Virus record (IMG/VR): IMGVR_UViG_2522572164_000007
Length of the DNA stretch: 42,200 nt
DNA from: a virus
Taxonomy: Duplodnaviria > Heunggongvirae > Uroviricota > Caudoviricetes
Strand: one strand, 5' to 3'
Shown: piece after piece, positions 3,169 through 32,701 of the stretch
Layout of the letters: every line of letters begins with the position of its first letter
Numbering within the stretch: position 1 is the stretch's first letter
Notes under the pieces: model-generated
The model's input: only the letters and a program-made list of their open reading frames with translations
Told to the model about the DNA's origin: nothing
The model's database searches: none
Program-made: the position numbers and the translations under genes

Positions 3169-3333
3169 GGTTAAATCTCCGTATGGTTCATACGGAATAG
3201 CCACGTATAGCGCGGCGATTTTTTTGATACCGATTTGCATTTCATTTGATACCGCTGAAAAACGCCGATACGCAACTTATTTGATACTAAATCGGCGCTT
3301 TTCTTTTGAGTTTTAGAATGAGTTTTTAAGCGC

Positions 3334-4071
3334 TCATTCACTCTCTTTCAAACCAGTTTTAACTGTTTGTGGTTTTGGGTAAGGGTGGACTTTGAATAGC
3401 TTTGTGTTGAGGCGTTTTCTGGCCCTCTTGTTCAGAAACCGGATGTAACGAAACTGTCGGAACTTATGCACACTGGCTCTGTCGATATTAGCCCTCAGAT
3501 GTTCACCTCGTTGTCCGCCTCGTTTAATGGCACTCCTGCAAATCTCGTGATACCACTCGCCATCAAGTTCATAGAATGTTGATTCATGGCTGCCTACATA
3601 ATCAAAATTGCTGGCCTGATACACGACACCAAGACAGCCACAACGCTCATCTGCAAACGACTGAACCCACTGTACCTGCGGATAAAGCTGCCTGATTAGC
3701 TTGAGCGCGTAACTGATTGCCCTTGATTCGGAGTTTCTCGGCATACAGTCATGCATCCATAGCCGGTTAAGCTCCATATATTCTCGGTTCTGCGTACCCG
3801 TTACGACGCGTGCACCACTGTTTGGGTTAAGGGCGTAACCCCATTGCATTACGCCAACAAGTTCCCGTTCTGAAAATATACCCAGATGAAGGTAGGAATT
3901 ATTTACGAAACGGTGGCTGTAATGTTTATTGACGATAACCAGTCTGGCCAGCCAGCAACTTATTGTCTCAACCCGCAACTCACGGGAGCCATAACCAACG
4001 ATATTGTCGTTATAGCGAATAAGTTCAGGCGTGCTGATGATACGGGATGTGACTTGCTTTCTGTTCCCCAC
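3334..4071 (-). CDS. mom: Mom-like DNA modification protein
   Basis: 245-aa ORF immediately downstream of, and overlapping, a Com-like zinc-finger gene at the far end of a Mu-like genome; size fits Mu Mom (about 230 aa). Start codon uncertain. Confidence 0.6.
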
Positions 4072-4225
4072 GACAGGATTTCCTTGTGTATGTGGGGTGC
4101 TCTGTGGCGCTCGGAGATGTGATTTGATTGAGGGTTTTACAGCGCGGACATTTTACTTCCAGATAACTGAAACTGGCCCGTGCCAGTAGCTTATTGCAGT
4201 GTCGGCACCGTATGTTTCGATACAT
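4025..4225 (-). CDS. com: Com-like zinc-finger translational activator of mom
   Basis: ORF 4025..4270 trimmed to the ATG at 4225 (GGAGG upstream). [30 protein letters not shown] resembles the Mu Com motif IRCKNCNKLL...CPRCK. Confidence 0.7.
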
Positions 4226-4261
4226 GGCCGCATAACCTCCTGCTTTGTTGTTGATGCCTTT

Positions 4262-4450
4262 CTCATGCAATCGATCGACAAAAACGATCGATTCGATTTG
4301 TTTAATTGATACAACAAATAGATTTAAAAGTCATCAACAATGATTCAGGGCGGTGATTATTTACTTAAAGAAACGAAGAGTTAGGTGGTGAAAACGATCA
4401 TAAAATGATCATTTTATTGACTTTTTATACAGTGAAGGTAGGATCGCGCG
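4262..4450 (-). promoter_or_regulatory. com-mom upstream regulatory region with clustered GATC (Dam) sites
   Basis: GATC at 4273, 4286, 4396, 4407 and 4442 (five in under 190 bp), directly upstream of com. Mu Pmom is known to be controlled by Dam methylation of upstream GATC sites that affects OxyR binding. Confidence 0.45.
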
Positions 4451-10599: not shown

Positions 10600-11675
10600 G
10601 TGATTTCCCCCACGGTCAGCAACTCTGTATCTCCGGCCATCACGGACTTCAGCGGGCTGCGAACTTCAAAATCCTCCAGTCCTTTCACCCCTGCAACAGC
10701 CCGCCAGAATGATGAAGGCAATACAAGTCCACCCGGCCGCGATTCGTTATAAAGCAGGTCTGTTAATGCCTGTTTTACGGCAGCCTGATTTTCCGGCGTT
10801 TTGGGTACAATCCTGATCTCAAACGCCACCGGCTTATTGGTCAGCTTAAACACGCTGATTGTCGGCCCAAGTGGCTGACCAACGGGCTGGCCCGTCGCCG
10901 GATCATCATGACTGCGGATATAATCCGCCACCCGCTTCACATCACCTTCTCCGGGGAAAATGTCAGGGTTATTATCCTGAACAAAAGTCACACCAACACT
11001 ACCCGCCTCAGGCCATTCAGGCTTACACCATGCCCGCGTCACGCCCGGTACTTCCCGTGCCCAGCGTTCAAAATCATACTGTGTTCCCCCTGATGGCGGG
11101 TTCTGTACCCGGAATACCAGCCTGGACAGCAACTCCGGCACCGTTTCCACATCCGCACCACCGGTGAGTCCCGTGCCGGTGACCGTGGCTGTCTGGTTGA
11201 TGCCCGCCTGTGGCGTGATAAAGGACAGGCGGGTTCCGGTCGGGGTATTTCCAGCGCGCCCCGCACTTTCCGCCTCCACATTAACATTCAGTGTTCCGGC
11301 TTTTCCGGTCGCAGAGCCGGTGATGCGGTACACAACCCCATCGCTTCGCTGAAGGAGTACGCCTTCCGTGATCCCTGCATCCGTGGTCAGCATCAGTTGT
11401 ACCGGTCCGTCAGCGCGGGAAGCCGGTTTACGGATGACACCCCAGAATGCGCAGTGTTTCAGGAGTTCGGCTTCATCAGCTTCTGTCGGAATTATCTGCC
11501 GGGAGATCCAGGCCAGATGTTCATGCTCCTGTGCTGACAGACCCGCCAGTGCATACGCAATGGCATTCAGGGTGGTTTCATTCACGCCCGGCTGCGAACC
11601 GGGCAGGCGCTGGCTGATATCCTGTTGTGTCTGTGTGATCAGTTGCGCCAGTGGTAAGGGCTGATAAGGCATCAT
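10590..11675 (-). CDS. Baseplate J-like protein (Mu gp47-like)
   Basis: 361-aa ORF; position and size. Confidence 0.65.
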   Translation of the reverse strand: MMPYQPLPLAQLITQTQQDISQRLPGSQPGVNETTLNAIAYALAGLSAQEHEHLAWISRQIIPTEADEAELLKHCAFWGVIRKPASRADGPVQLMLTTDAGITEGVLLQRSDGVVYRITGSATGKAGTLNVNVEAESAGRAGNTPTGTRLSFITPQAGINQTATVTGTGLTGGADVETVPELLSRLVFRVQNPPSGGTQYDFERWAREVPGVTRAWCKPEWPEAGSVGVTFVQDNNPDIFPGEGDVKRVADYIRSHDDPATGQPVGQPLGPTISVFKLTNKPVAFEIRIVPKTPENQAAVKQALTDLLYNESRPGGLVLPSSFWRAVAGVKGLEDFEVRSPLKSVMAGDTELLTVGEITWL

Positions 11676-22306: not shown

Positions 22307-23430
22307 TATTGCATTTCCTCTTTCATTTTCAGGAACTCGGCTTCGGTTTTACCCAGCAGTTTGGCGGCCGCGATATCTTCAGCCGACAGCGCAGCGGTGG
22401 CAGTCTTTTTATCCGGCACGGTCACGGTGTCGGTCTGAAGAGAGGTCAGGGCCGCAACCGGCTGGCGGGCGTCAAGCTGTGCAGAAAGTGCCGCAACGCC
22501 AATCTGCCCGCCCAGTTGTTCCAGATAGCCGCGTTCGCTTTTGAAGATGCGCCCTTCGGATTCAGCCTTGTCCAGCACCTGCTCCAGCGTGGTGCTGCCG
22601 TGCTGCGCCGACAGCGCAACGTATTCGGTACGCAGGGCGTTATACGTTTCAACGGGCACGTATTTCGTCAGATCAATAATGCCGCCAGCCGGTGTGCCTT
22701 TTGCGGTTTCCAGCTCTGCCGACAGACTGGCGACCTGTGTTTTCAGGTTGTCGTGTGCATCCGCACGGGTTTTGATCCCGGTGAGGGCAGACAGCGCCGC
22801 CGTGCCCAGCTCCGGCGTAAATTCGTCACCGTCAGCCACGGTCAGACCGAGCGCCGTCAGCAACTGGCGTAATTGCTCATTCATGGAGGTATCCTTTAAA
22901 GGAGGGTTTAAGGCGTTATAAAGGTCATCCGCCGACAGCGCGGCGACAGGATTCATGCCGGTCAGACCGGGGTCACCGGTAATAGCCAGCATCCGAAGTT
23001 CGACAGGTTCGCCGGTGTTCTCGTCATAGCCAATCACCGGTGAAAACCAGGGGAATTCGTTATTACGCAGATGTTCAAGGGCCGGAGGGTTCCACTTCGG
23101 GCGCACCTCGAAGCCACGCTCTTCACTGAAGCGAAAATTCTCCGGTGAGGCCATCACAAAACCGGCAGCCGGTGCCTGATGCCCCTTAATCAGGGTCTGG
23201 TGGTTGTAGTCAATTTTCACCGGCTGATTGAGCGCCACAACCCGGGATACCATGCGCTCAACGGTCGCACGGTTAATCAGCCAGCCCTCGGCCGGTTTTT
23301 CCGGGCGACCGTCACGGGCCTTTACCCGACCGGCTGGCATGATCTGACACCAGTCACCGTCCCCGTCTGCGGACAGGCTGATGGCATTCAGAATGGCATA
23401 AGCAAGTTTGGGCGTGTTTTTCGTCTTCAT
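22306..23430 (-). CDS. Head protease/scaffold protein (Mu I-like)
   Basis: 374-aa ORF; Ala/Leu-rich coiled-coil C-terminal half; position. Confidence 0.7.
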   Translation of the reverse strand: MKTKNTPKLAYAILNAISLSADGDGDWCQIMPAGRVKARDGRPEKPAEGWLINRATVERMVSRVVALNQPVKIDYNHQTLIKGHQAPAAGFVMASPENFRFSEERGFEVRPKWNPPALEHLRNNEFPWFSPVIGYDENTGEPVELRMLAITGDPGLTGMNPVAALSADDLYNALNPPLKDTSMNEQLRQLLTALGLTVADGDEFTPELGTAALSALTGIKTRADAHDNLKTQVASLSAELETAKGTPAGGIIDLTKYVPVETYNALRTEYVALSAQHGSTTLEQVLDKAESEGRIFKSERGYLEQLGGQIGVAALSAQLDARQPVAALTSLQTDTVTVPDKKTATAALSAEDIAAAKLLGKTEAEFLKMKEEMQ

Positions 23431-23606
23431 TCCGGCAGCATAAGCCGGGAATTTTCAGGGCGGGTTTTGCGGGATTTCAGGAAGTGCTTCCAGGGGAAAA
23501 ATACAAAGGCGCTTCACGCAGATTTTAAAGCCCGTTAAATACAGGTTAGAAAATCACGACACGCGCCTGAAGGGGGTAAGGTAATGCATTTGCATACCTT
23601 AAACAA

Positions 23607-30538: not shown

Positions 30539-30869
30539 TCGTGGCCGCCTCACTGATTTGTGAAATGAGTTGCAGGGTGTGCTGCTGATTTGCCAGCACC
30601 TGACGCGCCTCATCCCGCTCACGCACAAGCACCTGATTATTGTCTTCAAGGCGCTGCGTCTTCTGGTGCATTCCCCATATCGCGGCAACCAGTACAGCGA
30701 TAATCCCCAGCGCCGCCATGCACGCCCCGGCAATCAGGGCCGGTAAGGCATTATTCACCGCAGCCACAGGACACCCCGTAACAGCAGTACCGCACACAGC
30801 AGCGCTATCATGATCGGTCGCCAGAAGCGGTTCAGACTTTCGGCAAATCGTAGCGACATAACCATTCAT
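30369..30869 (-). CDS. Candidate i-spanin (start uncertain)
   Basis: Hydrophobic LPALIAGACMAALGIIAVLVAAIW followed by a charged, Gln-rich coiled-coil-like region; directly downstream of the endolysin gene. Confidence 0.4.
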   Translation of the reverse strand: MNGYVATICRKSEPLLATDHDSAAVCGTAVTGCPVAAVNNALPALIAGACMAALGIIAVLVAAIWGMHQKTQRLEDNNQVLVRERDEARQVLANQQHTLQLISQISEAATNEKQQNIQHSEGQQSVVRRSLAAVPAASAPVPDDVADRVRRAVCEIRACEAGADPR

Positions 30870-31332
30870 CCGCCGAACGGCGGGCCTCAAGGCCGGGGAG
30901 CTTCACCCCCTTTGAATAAATCCAGCGGATATACTGCTTACAGGACGCGGGCATCTGCCCGGCATTGATCAGGCGCAGAAGCGTGGAGTTGCGAAAGTTC
31001 GTTTCACCGGCCCAGAAGATCCACGAAGCCAGCGCCACCGTCTGACCACGGGTAAGCGGCACCTGAACACGCCGATCAATGGCCGCAAAGGCCCATTTCA
31101 TGTCCTTTTCCAGTAGTTCCAGGCATTCTTCATCCGTCAGGGTCATACCCGGTTTCACATCCGGGCCGGTATGGCCGTAACAGATGGTGGGTGTACCGGT
31201 GGGATCGATATACGTGGAGTTTTCTTTCCCTTCCCAGTAACCGGTGTAATGCGTGGCAATCGTGAACGTCCCGGCACCGGCCAGAACAAGGGCAATCAGC
31301 TTTTTACGCAGTGGTGCGGGGAGTTTTGGCAT
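30832..31332 (-). CDS. lys: SAR endolysin (lysozyme, glycoside hydrolase family 24)
   Basis: 166 aa; N-terminal Gly/Ala-rich weakly hydrophobic segment LIALVLAGAGTFTIA; catalytic triad spacing E-x8-D-x5-T. Confidence 0.8.
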   Translation of the reverse strand: MPKLPAPLRKKLIALVLAGAGTFTIATHYTGYWEGKENSTYIDPTGTPTICYGHTGPDVKPGMTLTDEECLELLEKDMKWAFAAIDRRVQVPLTRGQTVALASWIFWAGETNFRNSTLLRLINAGQMPASCKQYIRWIYSKGVKLPGLEARRSADEWLCRYDLPKV

Positions 31333-31403
31333 TGTTACGCTGTCTCATGATGTTCTCTGAGTCAGCGTAACGGTGAAGGAAAGGCGGCAGGCTTTGCGGA
31401 ATA

Positions 31404-31829
31404 TCAGAAAAGTGGCGGTTGTGTTCTTGCCAGATGCAGACGGCGCTGTTCACGTATGACGGTATAAATCTGGGTTTCTGACATCCGGTAATGGCGGCGA
31501 AGGGATTCAATTTTCTCGCCCCGGTCCCAGCGCGAAAATATCTCATTGTTTCGCAGCTCGGCAAAGAGAGATTCCCCGACCGGCAGGTAATAACCCCGTC
31601 CGCCCATATAGGCTGCCTGAGCCGCAGCCACCTTGCGTGCCAGTTTGCCGGCCAGTACCGGCTCAATCCCCTGACGCTGAAGTTCTGCGCCGGTGACTTC
31701 AACCAGTTCTGACAGGGTCCGCGGCCAGTTCTTTTTGAGAACATCATCAGGGATGTCATCAAGGCGGTCGATAAGGGCGTGCAGTTGCTCACTGTCACCA
31801 CCAAACATGCTCATCTGAGTTTCTGCCAT
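31404..31829 (-). CDS. mor: Mor/C-family transcriptional activator
   Basis: 141-aa ORF immediately downstream of the GemA-like gene and upstream of lys, with a C-terminal HTH-like region. Confidence 0.7.
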   Translation of the reverse strand: MAETQMSMFGGDSEQLHALIDRLDDIPDDVLKKNWPRTLSELVEVTGAELQRQGIEPVLAGKLARKVAAAQAAYMGGRGYYLPVGESLFAELRNNEIFSRWDRGEKIESLRRHYRMSETQIYTVIREQRRLHLARTQPPLF

Positions 31830-31898
31830 ATCAGCCTCCGGTTCTCGCGTTCCCGGTAAGTTTAAAATAAAAATCCCGCGTTGTGGCGGGATTTGGGG

Positions 31899-32408
31899 TT
31901 AACGGGGAAGTGATTTTTCATACTGCCTGCAAACGGCGTCATACCCCATCAGCGTGCGTTCGGGCATTCCCATCGCGGCCAGCATTTTGCGGCGGTGCCA
32001 TCGCTTGAGACGCTCCAGCACATCTGAGGCCAGGGCGGGGTGTTGCTCCAGCCACTGCCAGTTTGCCACACCTTCGCCGCCGTTTTGCGCGGCCGTCTGC
32101 GATTTCACCCAGCGGTTAAGGGCGGTTTCCGCACCATCAGAGATAAAGCCCTGCCGGTGCATCACCTTCCAGATGGCGCGAATTTTAGCGGTCACCGTAC
32201 CCGGTTTTAAGGCCCGGTTAACCGGGTTCTGACGCACTTTAAAACCGCGTTTTTTGAAAACATCCAGCACGCGGGATAACTCATCCGGTGACATATCCCG
32301 GCAGCTGGTTTTGCCGGTGACCGCCAGTAGTACGGATGTGTAGGTTTCATCATCCAGGGCAAGCTCGCGTTTTGCCACATGAATGGCAGATATCAGTTTC
32401 CCTCTCAT
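31899..32408 (-). CDS. gemA: GemA-like protein (Mu gp16-like)
   Basis: 169-aa ORF; N-terminal ...IHVAKRELALDDETY... motif; position upstream of mor. Confidence 0.6.
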   Translation of the reverse strand: MRGKLISAIHVAKRELALDDETYTSVLLAVTGKTSCRDMSPDELSRVLDVFKKRGFKVRQNPVNRALKPGTVTAKIRAIWKVMHRQGFISDGAETALNRWVKSQTAAQNGGEGVANWQWLEQHPALASDVLERLKRWHRRKMLAAMGMPERTLMGYDAVCRQYEKSLPR

Positions 32409-32701
32409 GCTGTATCAACACTCCTGCGGATATGATAGGTATTATTTTCCCGATCGAGCTGAACCCGATACTCCGGAGGAATCACAAAAATATTAAAACC
32501 ATCATCAGTTTTTATTCTTGAGTAGCATTCCCCCTTATGATATCTGGCCAGTGTATTAATCAGAGAAGTCGCAGCCTGCCCAATCAGGTATTTTTTATGA
32601 AAAATACTGATAACTTTCCGGCACAGCCATCGTGTAATGACGAATGCACCGAAAAAGGATGTGATATATAAATACCAGAACAACTGCGAACTACTGTCCA
32701 T
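32405..32701 (-). CDS. Hypothetical membrane protein
   Basis: 98-aa ORF with N-terminal hydrophobic helix LFWYLYITSFFGAFVI. Confidence 0.45.
   Translation of the reverse strand: MDSSSQLFWYLYITSFFGAFVITRWLCRKVISIFHKKYLIGQAATSLINTLARYHKGECYSRIKTDDGFNIFVIPPEYRVQLDRENNTYHIRRSVDTA

Follow-up and report, generated by a model that had tools for sequence, protein, structure and literature searches.

The closest described systems to the locus treated here come from phages Mu and T4. Phage Mu encodes two paralogous transcriptional activators, Mor and C, with a middle operon (gp18-gp20) lying between them. The Mor/C family has more than 40 members, found mostly in prophages, and its proteins are about 100-150 aa long, with an acidic N-terminal half and a basic C-terminal half that bears a helix-turn-helix (PMC2582627). 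The sites of Mu C and Mor are imperfect dyads of 16 bp that have their centre at -43.5 and footprints of about -30 to -55 (PMC2582627; PMC4287176). In this family, the site overlaps the -35 region from its upstream side (PMC2582627; PMC4287176; bioRxiv 10.1101/2025.05.02.651988), and a C site placed over the -10/+1 region, as in the synthetic Prep promoter, leads to repression (PMC2582627). In the AF083977 annotation, whose late-promoter features cite an S1-mapping paper (PMID 2522923), all four Mu late promoters follow the pattern ATAAYCN-21 nt-hexamer, with the hexamers TAGACT, CAAACT, TATCCT and TAAGAT. The GenBank features for the Mu promoters Plys and Pm do not define +1, and predicted starts are therefore given here as ranges.

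Control of a lysis gene through the structure of its RNA is known from phage T4. The long upstream transcripts of gene e hold a hairpin that sequesters the ribosome site for lysozyme, and hairpin control is also found at soc, 49 and I-TevI (PMC3014915). A related device exists in Mu itself, where a hairpin closes the ribosome site of mom, a potentially harmful late gene, and is opened by the Com protein.

The DNA analysed here is a stretch of 42.2 kb (42,200 nucleotides, hereafter the window), which is a Mu-like prophage of E. coli O157:H7, named Sp18 in strain Sakai and predicted to be intact by Asadulghani et al. (PMC2669165). The 1.65-kb region around the activator-lys junction matches many chromosomes of E. 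coli O157:H7 and other Shiga-toxin-producing E. coli (STEC) with 100% identity, and was found in 231 of 5,426 complete E. coli genomes; two Stx-phage records hold the same DNA and label it an inserted Mu-like phage. For an identical copy, RefSeq describes a complete Mu-like prophage that extends from the repressor and transposase A and B as far as com and mom. Besides Com and Mom, the prophage encodes a TraR/DksA zinc-finger protein. Near the junction, all phage genes lie on the minus strand, and the order of the C-like activator followed by lys is that of Mu (Table 1). On the coding strand, the gap between the two genes reads TGA-tattccgcaaagcctgccgcctttccttcacc-GTTACGCTGACTCA-gagaacatca-TGAGACAGCGTAAC-a-ATG. 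The Lys protein is 39% identical to Mu gp22 over 158 aa, in an alignment that starts at residue 1, and its N-terminal region resembles the signal-arrest-release (SAR) domain of gp22, which is annotated as a SAR endolysin. Endolysins of this type are exported without a holin, so translation of lys from the same transcript that makes the activator would plausibly be costly.

Table 1. Coordinates, strand and properties of the features of the activator-lys junction, of the gene I promoter and of the region upstream of the activator gene
Feature	Position in window	Strand	Remarks
Mor/C-family activator gene	31404-31829	-	141 aa; Pfam PF08765, E=2.8e-32
Activator-lys gap	31333-31403	-	71 bp
lys, lysozyme-family endolysin	30832-31332	-	Pfam Phage_lysozyme, E=6e-37
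Predicted activator-binding block CACTTTTCTGATATTCCGCAAAGCCTGCC	31386-31414	-	about -57 to -29; overlaps the end of the activator gene (last codons and TGA stop)
Predicted lys -10 hexamer TACGCT	31364-31369	-	within the 5' arm of the hairpin; 20 nt downstream of the block
Predicted lys late start	about 31357 (range 31356-31362)	-	from motif geometry
Dyad, short arms	GTTACGCTG 31334-31342; CAGCGTAAC 31363-31371	-	20 nt between the arms
RNA hairpin	5' arm 31371-31358; loop 31357-31348; 3' arm 31347-31334	- (sense strand)	predicted fold
Gene I promoter signature	22-mer 23459-23480; TATGCT 23437-23442; ATG 23430	-	second copy, at protease gene I
Late-promoter core with one mismatch, CCCCAAATCCCGCC	31885-31898	-	begins directly downstream of the gemA stop
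Terminator-like palindrome AAATCCCGC-N6-GCGGGATTT	31871-31894	-	overlaps the late-promoter core
TATTTT and TAAACT	31864-31869 and 31859-31864	-	downstream of the palindrome

The activator is a typical member of its family. It matches PF08765 over the full length of the profile (residues 34-140 on profile positions 2-107 of 107) with 111.3 bits against a gathering cut-off of 24.9, and matches the PHROG "late transcriptional activator" at E=3e-45. With 141 aa, it is comparable in size to Mor and C, and as read from the sequence its N-terminus (DSEQLHALIDRLDDIPDD) is acidic and its C-terminus (RRHYRMSETQIYTVIREQRRLHLAR) basic. Its identity is 39% to Mu C (137 aa), with which it aligns from end to end, versus 27% to Mu Mor, and among solved structures the Mu C chains match best (9l0x, E=1e-26), followed by Mor (1rr7, E=2e-9). 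Judged by similarity and position, the protein is the orthologue of Mu C.

According to the first-pass annotation, only one Mor/C homologue is visible, immediately upstream of lys, and a search of the whole prophage bore this out. A phmmer comparison with the six-frame stop-to-stop ORFs of at least 40 aa gave no second Mor/C paralogue (next-best E 4.9). An unfiltered Mor/C HMM, built from the activator, two close relatives, Mu C, Mu Mor and a Pasteurella homologue, had its sole match across the six frames of the window at 31407-31898 on the minus strand. The same HMM recovers both paralogues in every Mu-type locus (L002, L060-L083), and the RefSeq annotation of the identical prophage likewise lists one Mor-family protein. 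In contrast to the Mu-type pair of Mor followed by C, the window has one such gene. Among IMG/VR relatives, within 2.5 kb on either side, two homologues occur in the Mu-proper group only, and one in L039-L059, L062, L064-L065 and L084-L089. The single-activator layout, shared by most of the relatives retrieved, is therefore common, ordinary in itself and an already known state. In one contig of the same phage (L007, P0076), a 1-nt deletion lengthens the activator ORF.

The late promoter of lys can be placed through a motif that recurs in the prophage. The 22-mer CTGAWATYCCGCAAARCCYGCC has exactly two copies in the window, at 31386-31407 and upstream of protease gene I, even when up to 3 mismatches are allowed, versus 0 expected by chance. 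In both copies, TTAYGCTG follows 15 nt downstream, which gives the common pattern CAAARCC-20 nt-TAYGCT; the lys version, CAAAGCC-20 nt-TACGCT, parallels CAAAACC-20 nt-TATGCT at gene I, and the similarity of the two reaches upstream to CACTT. The assigned start codon of gene I is consistent with the alignment to Mu gpI, and the spacing of 6 or 7 nt between its hexamer and the ATG is kept in relatives. As read from the sequence, TACGCT is the only TAnnnT hexamer in the 71-bp gap, where a scan found no two-hexamer match to a sigma-70 promoter. The region 31357-31414, as a candidate late promoter of the Mu type, has a -10 hexamer with no usable -35 and an upstream element shared at a fixed distance. 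Mu Plys carries ATAATCC-21 nt-TAGACT where the prophage carries CAAAGCC-20 nt-TACGCT, and the prophage sequence ..ATATTCCGCAAAGCCTGCC..-TACGCTGACTCAGAGAA resembles, and aligns with, ..CATAATCCCGCACCTGCC..-TAGACTGCCATCAGAGAA of Mu Plys.

Conservation among relatives points to the same elements. In the distinct gaps of close relatives, the 22-mer and the adjacent CTTTT (the block from CTTTTCTGA to CCTGCC) differ at one G/T position only. Variation is free over the 13-14 nt that follow, and from GTTACGCTG to the ATG it is confined to the unpaired position of the stem and a single base of the loop. Such a succession of constant site, variable spacer and constant -10 region is promoter-like, and the site, hexamer and start were assigned on this basis. 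Relatives have xAAxCC-21 nt-TAnnCT at the same place. Additionally, in two further lineages, Plys and PI of the same phage share ACTAAC-N3-ACCGTAAWCC in L039 and L147, and AGCGTAATCCC in L093 and L150, in each case 21 nt upstream of the hexamer; the spacing from site to hexamer is 20 nt in the prophage versus 21 nt in Mu and other relatives. Through the recurrence of the motif, the block at 31386-31414 is the likely candidate site of the activator at the lys promoter. For the annotation of Mu-like prophages, the late-promoter signature is CACTTYY-N7-CCSCAAANCCYGCC, 20 nt, TAYGCT. Two further late promoters would be expected by analogy with Mu PP and Pmom, but in searches with motif-plus-hexamer patterns no place scored well besides lys, gene I and the gap before the activator gene. 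A position at 11108 on the minus strand is a weak candidate, and the region upstream of com may be another.

The dyad lies downstream of this block. The first-pass annotation had described it within the gap, and it is real, although its end, placed at 31372, was one base too far; GTTACGCTG-20 nt-CAGCGTAAC occupies 31334-31371. It extends to 14-nt arms (31334-31347 and 31358-31371) that are complementary at 13 of 14 positions and enclose a 10-nt loop. The exact dyad has one copy in the window, and none of 100 dinucleotide shuffles contains such a dyad. As RNA, the hairpin ends 1 nt before the lys AUG, and its 3' arm covers positions -15 to -2 of lys, including a weak GAGA Shine-Dalgarno sequence. 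The 68-nt RNA segment that ends at ATG+6 folds at -20.1 kcal/mol (z=-4.1), a 121-nt segment gives z=-3.05 and the DNA fold of the dyad z=-6.0; at most 1 in 500 shuffles folds as well as the hairpin (p=0.002). Rfam 15 covariance models gave no match at E<=1 on either strand of 30700-32500. An out-of-frame ATG at 31348, opening a 14-codon ORF, was considered as a feature and rejected, being absent in L039 and L093.

What the hairpin does to the start of lys depends, in partition-function folding, on where the RNA begins. The mean probability of being unpaired for lys -18 to -1 is 0.18 in read-through RNA that starts at 31560, 31450 or 31372, rises to 0.40 for RNA from 31362 and reaches about 0.60 for RNA from 31358 or 31356. 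RNA from upstream can form the 9-bp outer stem and RNA from the predicted late start cannot, and the hairpin is present in the minimum-free-energy fold of read-through RNAs of 81-269 nt. Around the lys start codon (-18 to +3), 13 of 21 nt have their pairing partner in RNA upstream of the predicted transcription start (p=0.014). The predicted fold thus has the ribosome site in a stable helix of the long transcript, as in T4 gene e, with the AUG itself mostly unpaired even in the read-through fold (0.65-0.96).

In our reading, the dyad most likely acts in RNA, as a hairpin that closes off the ribosome site of lys in read-through transcripts, with the -10 element of the late promoter nested within it and the late RNA translated; we give this a probability of about 55%. 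The reading draws on features that were computed, namely a sole Mor/C homologue, the dyad, a motif that recurs at the same spacing, the fold predicted for the RNA and the comparable layouts of relatives. A terminator scan found no terminator-like site in the activator-lys gap, so transcripts of the activator gene would run on into lys. Such read-through RNA would carry the whole hairpin, and the ribosome-binding region would in consequence be masked and endolysin not made early. When the activator fires the late promoter, RNA would start near 31357 without the 5' arm, the hairpin could not form and lys would be translated. The start, the binding of the activator, the read-through and the effect on translation are all predictions of this scheme; the placement of the -10-like hexamer within the 5' arm comes from motif geometry and comparison, and the start is in turn predicted from it.

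The likeness to T4 gene e lies in the predicted layout, with the -10 hexamer in the 5' arm and the 3' arm abutting the AUG; the two share no sequence relationship. The control in T4 was shown experimentally, whereas that in the prophage is predicted, and T4 late promoters use gp55, gp33 and gp45 with a TATAAATA element, whereas the prophage promoter would be a sigma-70 promoter that depends on a Mor/C activator. As with Com and mom, a hairpin would close the ribosome site of a potentially harmful late gene, but the predicted release in the prophage is the choice of transcription start and implies no factor. In Mu itself, a predicted terminator directly follows C, and the 94-bp gap offers only the weak pairing GCCAUCA/UGAUGGC, in contrast to the prophage with its strong hairpin and no terminator. 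The nested late promoter and hairpin would be a new instance of a known mechanism.

Approximately 20 junctions between an activator gene and a lysis gene were compared, with activators 38-60% identical and roughly 11 sequence families. The distance from hexamer to ATG in these junctions is 25-38 nt, mostly 29-31. Although their sequences are largely unrelated, the segment from hexamer to ATG is more structured than dinucleotide shuffles in 14 of 15 representatives (p<0.05), and most of them combine a 5' arm that overlaps the hexamer with a 3' arm that runs up to the ATG or holds the Shine-Dalgarno sequence; examples of such nesting are L060 (ACCCTCCTT/AAGGAGGGT), L042, L040, L050, L039 and L093. 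Ribosome-site bases paired upstream of the predicted start exceed those of shuffles at a combined p of 5e-5, in a set of representatives that are not fully independent. In Pasteurellaceae-type relatives, TAAACT begins the hairpin, which is followed by six or seven U and then the ATG, and three unrelated inner-stem sequences pair perfectly. The hairpins of L056 and L089 contain U.G pairs, which are possible on the sense strand only. Masking is weak or lacking in Mu-type loci (including L063), L045, L048 and L052, and in L058 and L091 the hairpin lies downstream of the likely start.

Among close relatives, the picture is one of invariance. All 26 paired positions are unchanged among 22 distinct relatives at least 84% identical, while 33 of the adjacent 95 nt vary, and the prophage hairpin accordingly has no covariation support. 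Relatives at intermediate distance that could provide covariation were not found; a metagenome scan gave 17 loci, with proteins all either at least 84% or 57% identical. Of two genome-contig scans, one yielded no relatives and the other only three, and a word-indexed protein search reached only relatives at least 64% identical; the contigs of its hits of lowest identity (P0076, P0082 and P0083) carry the same phage.

Other explanations of the dyad have to be weighed at the level of DNA and of RNA. The first-pass annotation took it for a possible DNA site at which the Mor/C-family activator switches on the lys late promoter. In favour of this are its place in the activator-lys gap, its conservation among close relatives and the fact that Mor and C bind imperfect dyads (PMC2582627; bioRxiv 10.1101/2025.05.02.651988). 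The idea was not borne out, and we regard it as very improbable. With 1 nt between its edge and the lys ATG, the dyad would occupy about -14 to +24 of whichever promoter served lys, including the only plausible one, rather than lying upstream of the -35 region; an activator site centred at -43.5 on the dyad would put the start about 23 nt past the ATG, inside lys. The dyad thus lies outside the footprint range of -30 to -55. No related element was seen at other late promoters; one-mismatch matches to its arm number 12 in the window versus 7.5 expected, which is no significant enrichment, none of them upstream of a late operon, gene I included, and the sequence that does recur there is the 22-mer, which the dyad does not resemble. 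Additionally, relatives with activators 57-60% identical do not share the dyad sequence, although they keep the class of upstream motif. It is also conceivable that the symmetry has no function, that it acts in DNA as an operator for a repressor or host protein over -14 to +24, or that it is conserved merely for the -10 element, start region and ribosome site. Constraints on the promoter and the ribosome site explain all of the conservation among close relatives, and the conservation of the hairpin could stem from the -10 element and the ribosome-binding region alone. With the hexamer 31 nt from the ATG, any stable hairpin over the ribosome site must reach it, which makes the overlap partly geometric and, together with the missing covariation, lends this view some weight. 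We still hold it to be doubtful, since complementarity at 13 of 14 positions over 14-nt arms was unseen in shuffles, unrelated sequences in relatives keep the pairing, and the U.G pairs of some relatives would be C.A mismatches on the other strand. As for an operator in particular, half-sites whose centres are 24-29 bp apart, as they are here, are atypical.

At the level of RNA, the hairpin might belong to the late lys mRNA itself, with a start upstream of 31371, as a stabilising 5' stem-loop or as a ribosome site opened by a trans-acting factor in the manner of Com and mom. The stability of the stem agrees with this, as do the presence in the prophage of Com, Mom and the TraR/DksA protein and the two relatives (L058 and L091) whose hairpin apparently lies downstream of the likely start. 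It is unlikely nonetheless, because no TAnnnT hexamer occurs between the activator stop codon and the hairpin, the conserved geometry of motif, 20 nt and hexamer puts the start inside the hairpin, and no opening factor was identified. A terminator or attenuator that halts early or middle transcription before lys would find parallels in the predicted terminator between C and Plys of Mu and in the Pasteurellaceae-type relatives, whose equivalent hairpin with its run of U directly before the ATG has the G+C-rich stem and U tract of an intrinsic terminator. After the prophage hairpin comes AAUGCCAAAACUC / AAUGCCAAAAC, which has no U tract, and the scan of the gap was negative, which makes termination here a distinctly improbable role. 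The reading that we retain is a predicted hairpin in read-through RNA by which the ribosome site of lys would be masked.

The region upstream of the activator gene, a gap of 69 bp, bears on how the activator is itself controlled. The late-promoter core, with at most 1 mismatch allowed, has four matches in the window versus 0.5 expected, and one of them lies in this gap, preceded by CACTTCC at a distance of 7 nt, as at gene I. The spacing from this site to a hexamer is 19 or 24 nt, versus 20 nt at the two late promoters. Single-activator relatives have AATCCCGC..GCGGGATTTTTT(A/G)TATAAT or TATACT at the same place. The motif hints at autoregulation, by which the activator would stimulate its own synthesis. 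The palindrome that overlaps the core was considered as a Mor-type site at -43.5 and rejected, its dyad centre being about 16-18 nt upstream of the nearest good hexamer; it is better understood as holding the late-promoter core in its 5' arm. The layout would be compatible with early transcription that leaks through the terminator, after which the activator stimulates its own promoter. Another early regulator may take part, a candidate being the 183-aa phrog_323 protein. A simplified two-tier cascade, as suggested by the first-pass annotation, is plausible as a prediction from the sequence.

Taken together with the relatives, the locus raises the tentative idea that many Mu-like phages may tie the translation of their first late genes to the site of transcription initiation. 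The -10 element of lys would be nested in a hairpin that masks the ribosome site, or terminates transcription, for RNA arriving from upstream; at gene I, the promoter would lie 6-7 nt from the ATG, and only leaderless RNA initiated at that promoter would be translated. A single C-like activator, acting also on its own terminator-overlapping promoter, would replace the cascade from Mor to C. If the masking model at lys holds, it would explain how a phage that has one activator and lacks a terminator in front of lys keeps its endolysin from being made too early, in a prophage that is carried by many Shiga-toxin-producing E. coli. It would also extend the principle of T4 gene e to the sigma-70, activator-dependent promoters of transposable phages.

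The mRNA of the protease gene I is predicted to be leaderless, because its -10-like hexamer lies so close to the start codon and because no Shine-Dalgarno element was found at the gene start (23430-23480, minus strand). The spacing between the hexamer and the ATG, of 6 or 7 nt, is conserved among the relatives compared here (L133, L137-L140, L143, L147, L149 and L150), despite their differing hexamers, such as TAAGCT, TACGAT and CACACT. In contrast, the leader of Mu gene I is 33 nt long and includes a Shine-Dalgarno element. The gene I hexamer is also enclosed by a 5-bp GC hairpin, CCGGC-ttatgct-GCCGG.

Features of the prophage, with positions in the window
Feature	Position	Strand	Remarks
-10-like hexamer TATGCT	23437-23442	-	6 nt between hexamer end and protease gene I ATG (23430)
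Perfect palindrome, terminator-like, AAATCCCGC-N6-GCGGGATTT	within 31859-31898	-	immediately 3' of the gemA stop codon
Weak late-promoter-like site, CAGAACCCGCC-16 nt-TATGAT	11060-11110	-	lies in the baseplate J gene; tail-fibre genes follow downstream
14-codon ORF, out-of-frame ATG	31304-31348	-	overlaps the start of lys
Early-region protein, 183 aa	33902-34453	-	phrog_323 'transcriptional regulator, D5-like', E=7e-58

Hairpins also occur at lysis-gene starts of Pasteurellaceae-type Mu-like phages. In most of the loci compared (L056, L057, L084, L006, L064, L065, L087-L089, L059 and L062), the ATG of an amidase gene is directly preceded by a hairpin that begins inside a TAAACT hexamer and has a run of six or seven U residues behind it. 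Perfect pairing is retained by three unrelated inner-stem sequences. The structure resembles an intrinsic terminator whose 5' arm holds a promoter element. Mu itself has a weak form of the arrangement seen at lys, the endolysin gene of the window: between the late promoter Plys and the lys start (L002, 2951-2987; segment p(dG)=0.026), the lys start codon is covered by UGAUGGC, a possible pairing partner of GCCAUCA, which stands directly 3' of TAGACT, the -10 hexamer. At the lys hairpin of the window, the out-of-frame ATG of a 14-codon ORF sits at the boundary of loop and 3' arm; this ORF is probably not meaningful, because it is missing from relatives whose activator is 57-60% identical.

The search for other late promoters yielded a weak site within the baseplate J gene, which could be a counterpart of the Mu late promoter PP, likewise intragenic. 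Upstream of com and mom, at 4226-4400, no convincing late-promoter-like site was found. Gene coordinates in the mom/com region (3300-4300) are offset by about 121 nt relative to NZ_CP022050.2. Homology to Mu Com suggests ATG 4225 as the start of the com reading frame; after correction for the 121-nt offset, this start lies close to the upstream boundary that the reference annotation gives for the com CDS of 201 nt. One metagenomic contig (L009, 590-709) departs from all others right after TGATATTCCGCA; the break point, within the predicted activator site, may reflect a rearrangement or an assembly chimera.

Upstream of the single Mor/C-family activator gene, the 5' arm and flank of the palindrome behind gemA differ from the late-promoter core at a single position, and the 9-mer AAATCCCGC is common to this palindrome and the gene I site. 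TATTTT and then TAAACT follow downstream. The promoter of the activator gene may be stimulated by the activator itself. The 183-aa early-region protein, for which no counterpart is named in Mu, weakly matches the Pfam entries for sigma-70 region 4 and for HTH families; it could act as a further regulator within the cascade.
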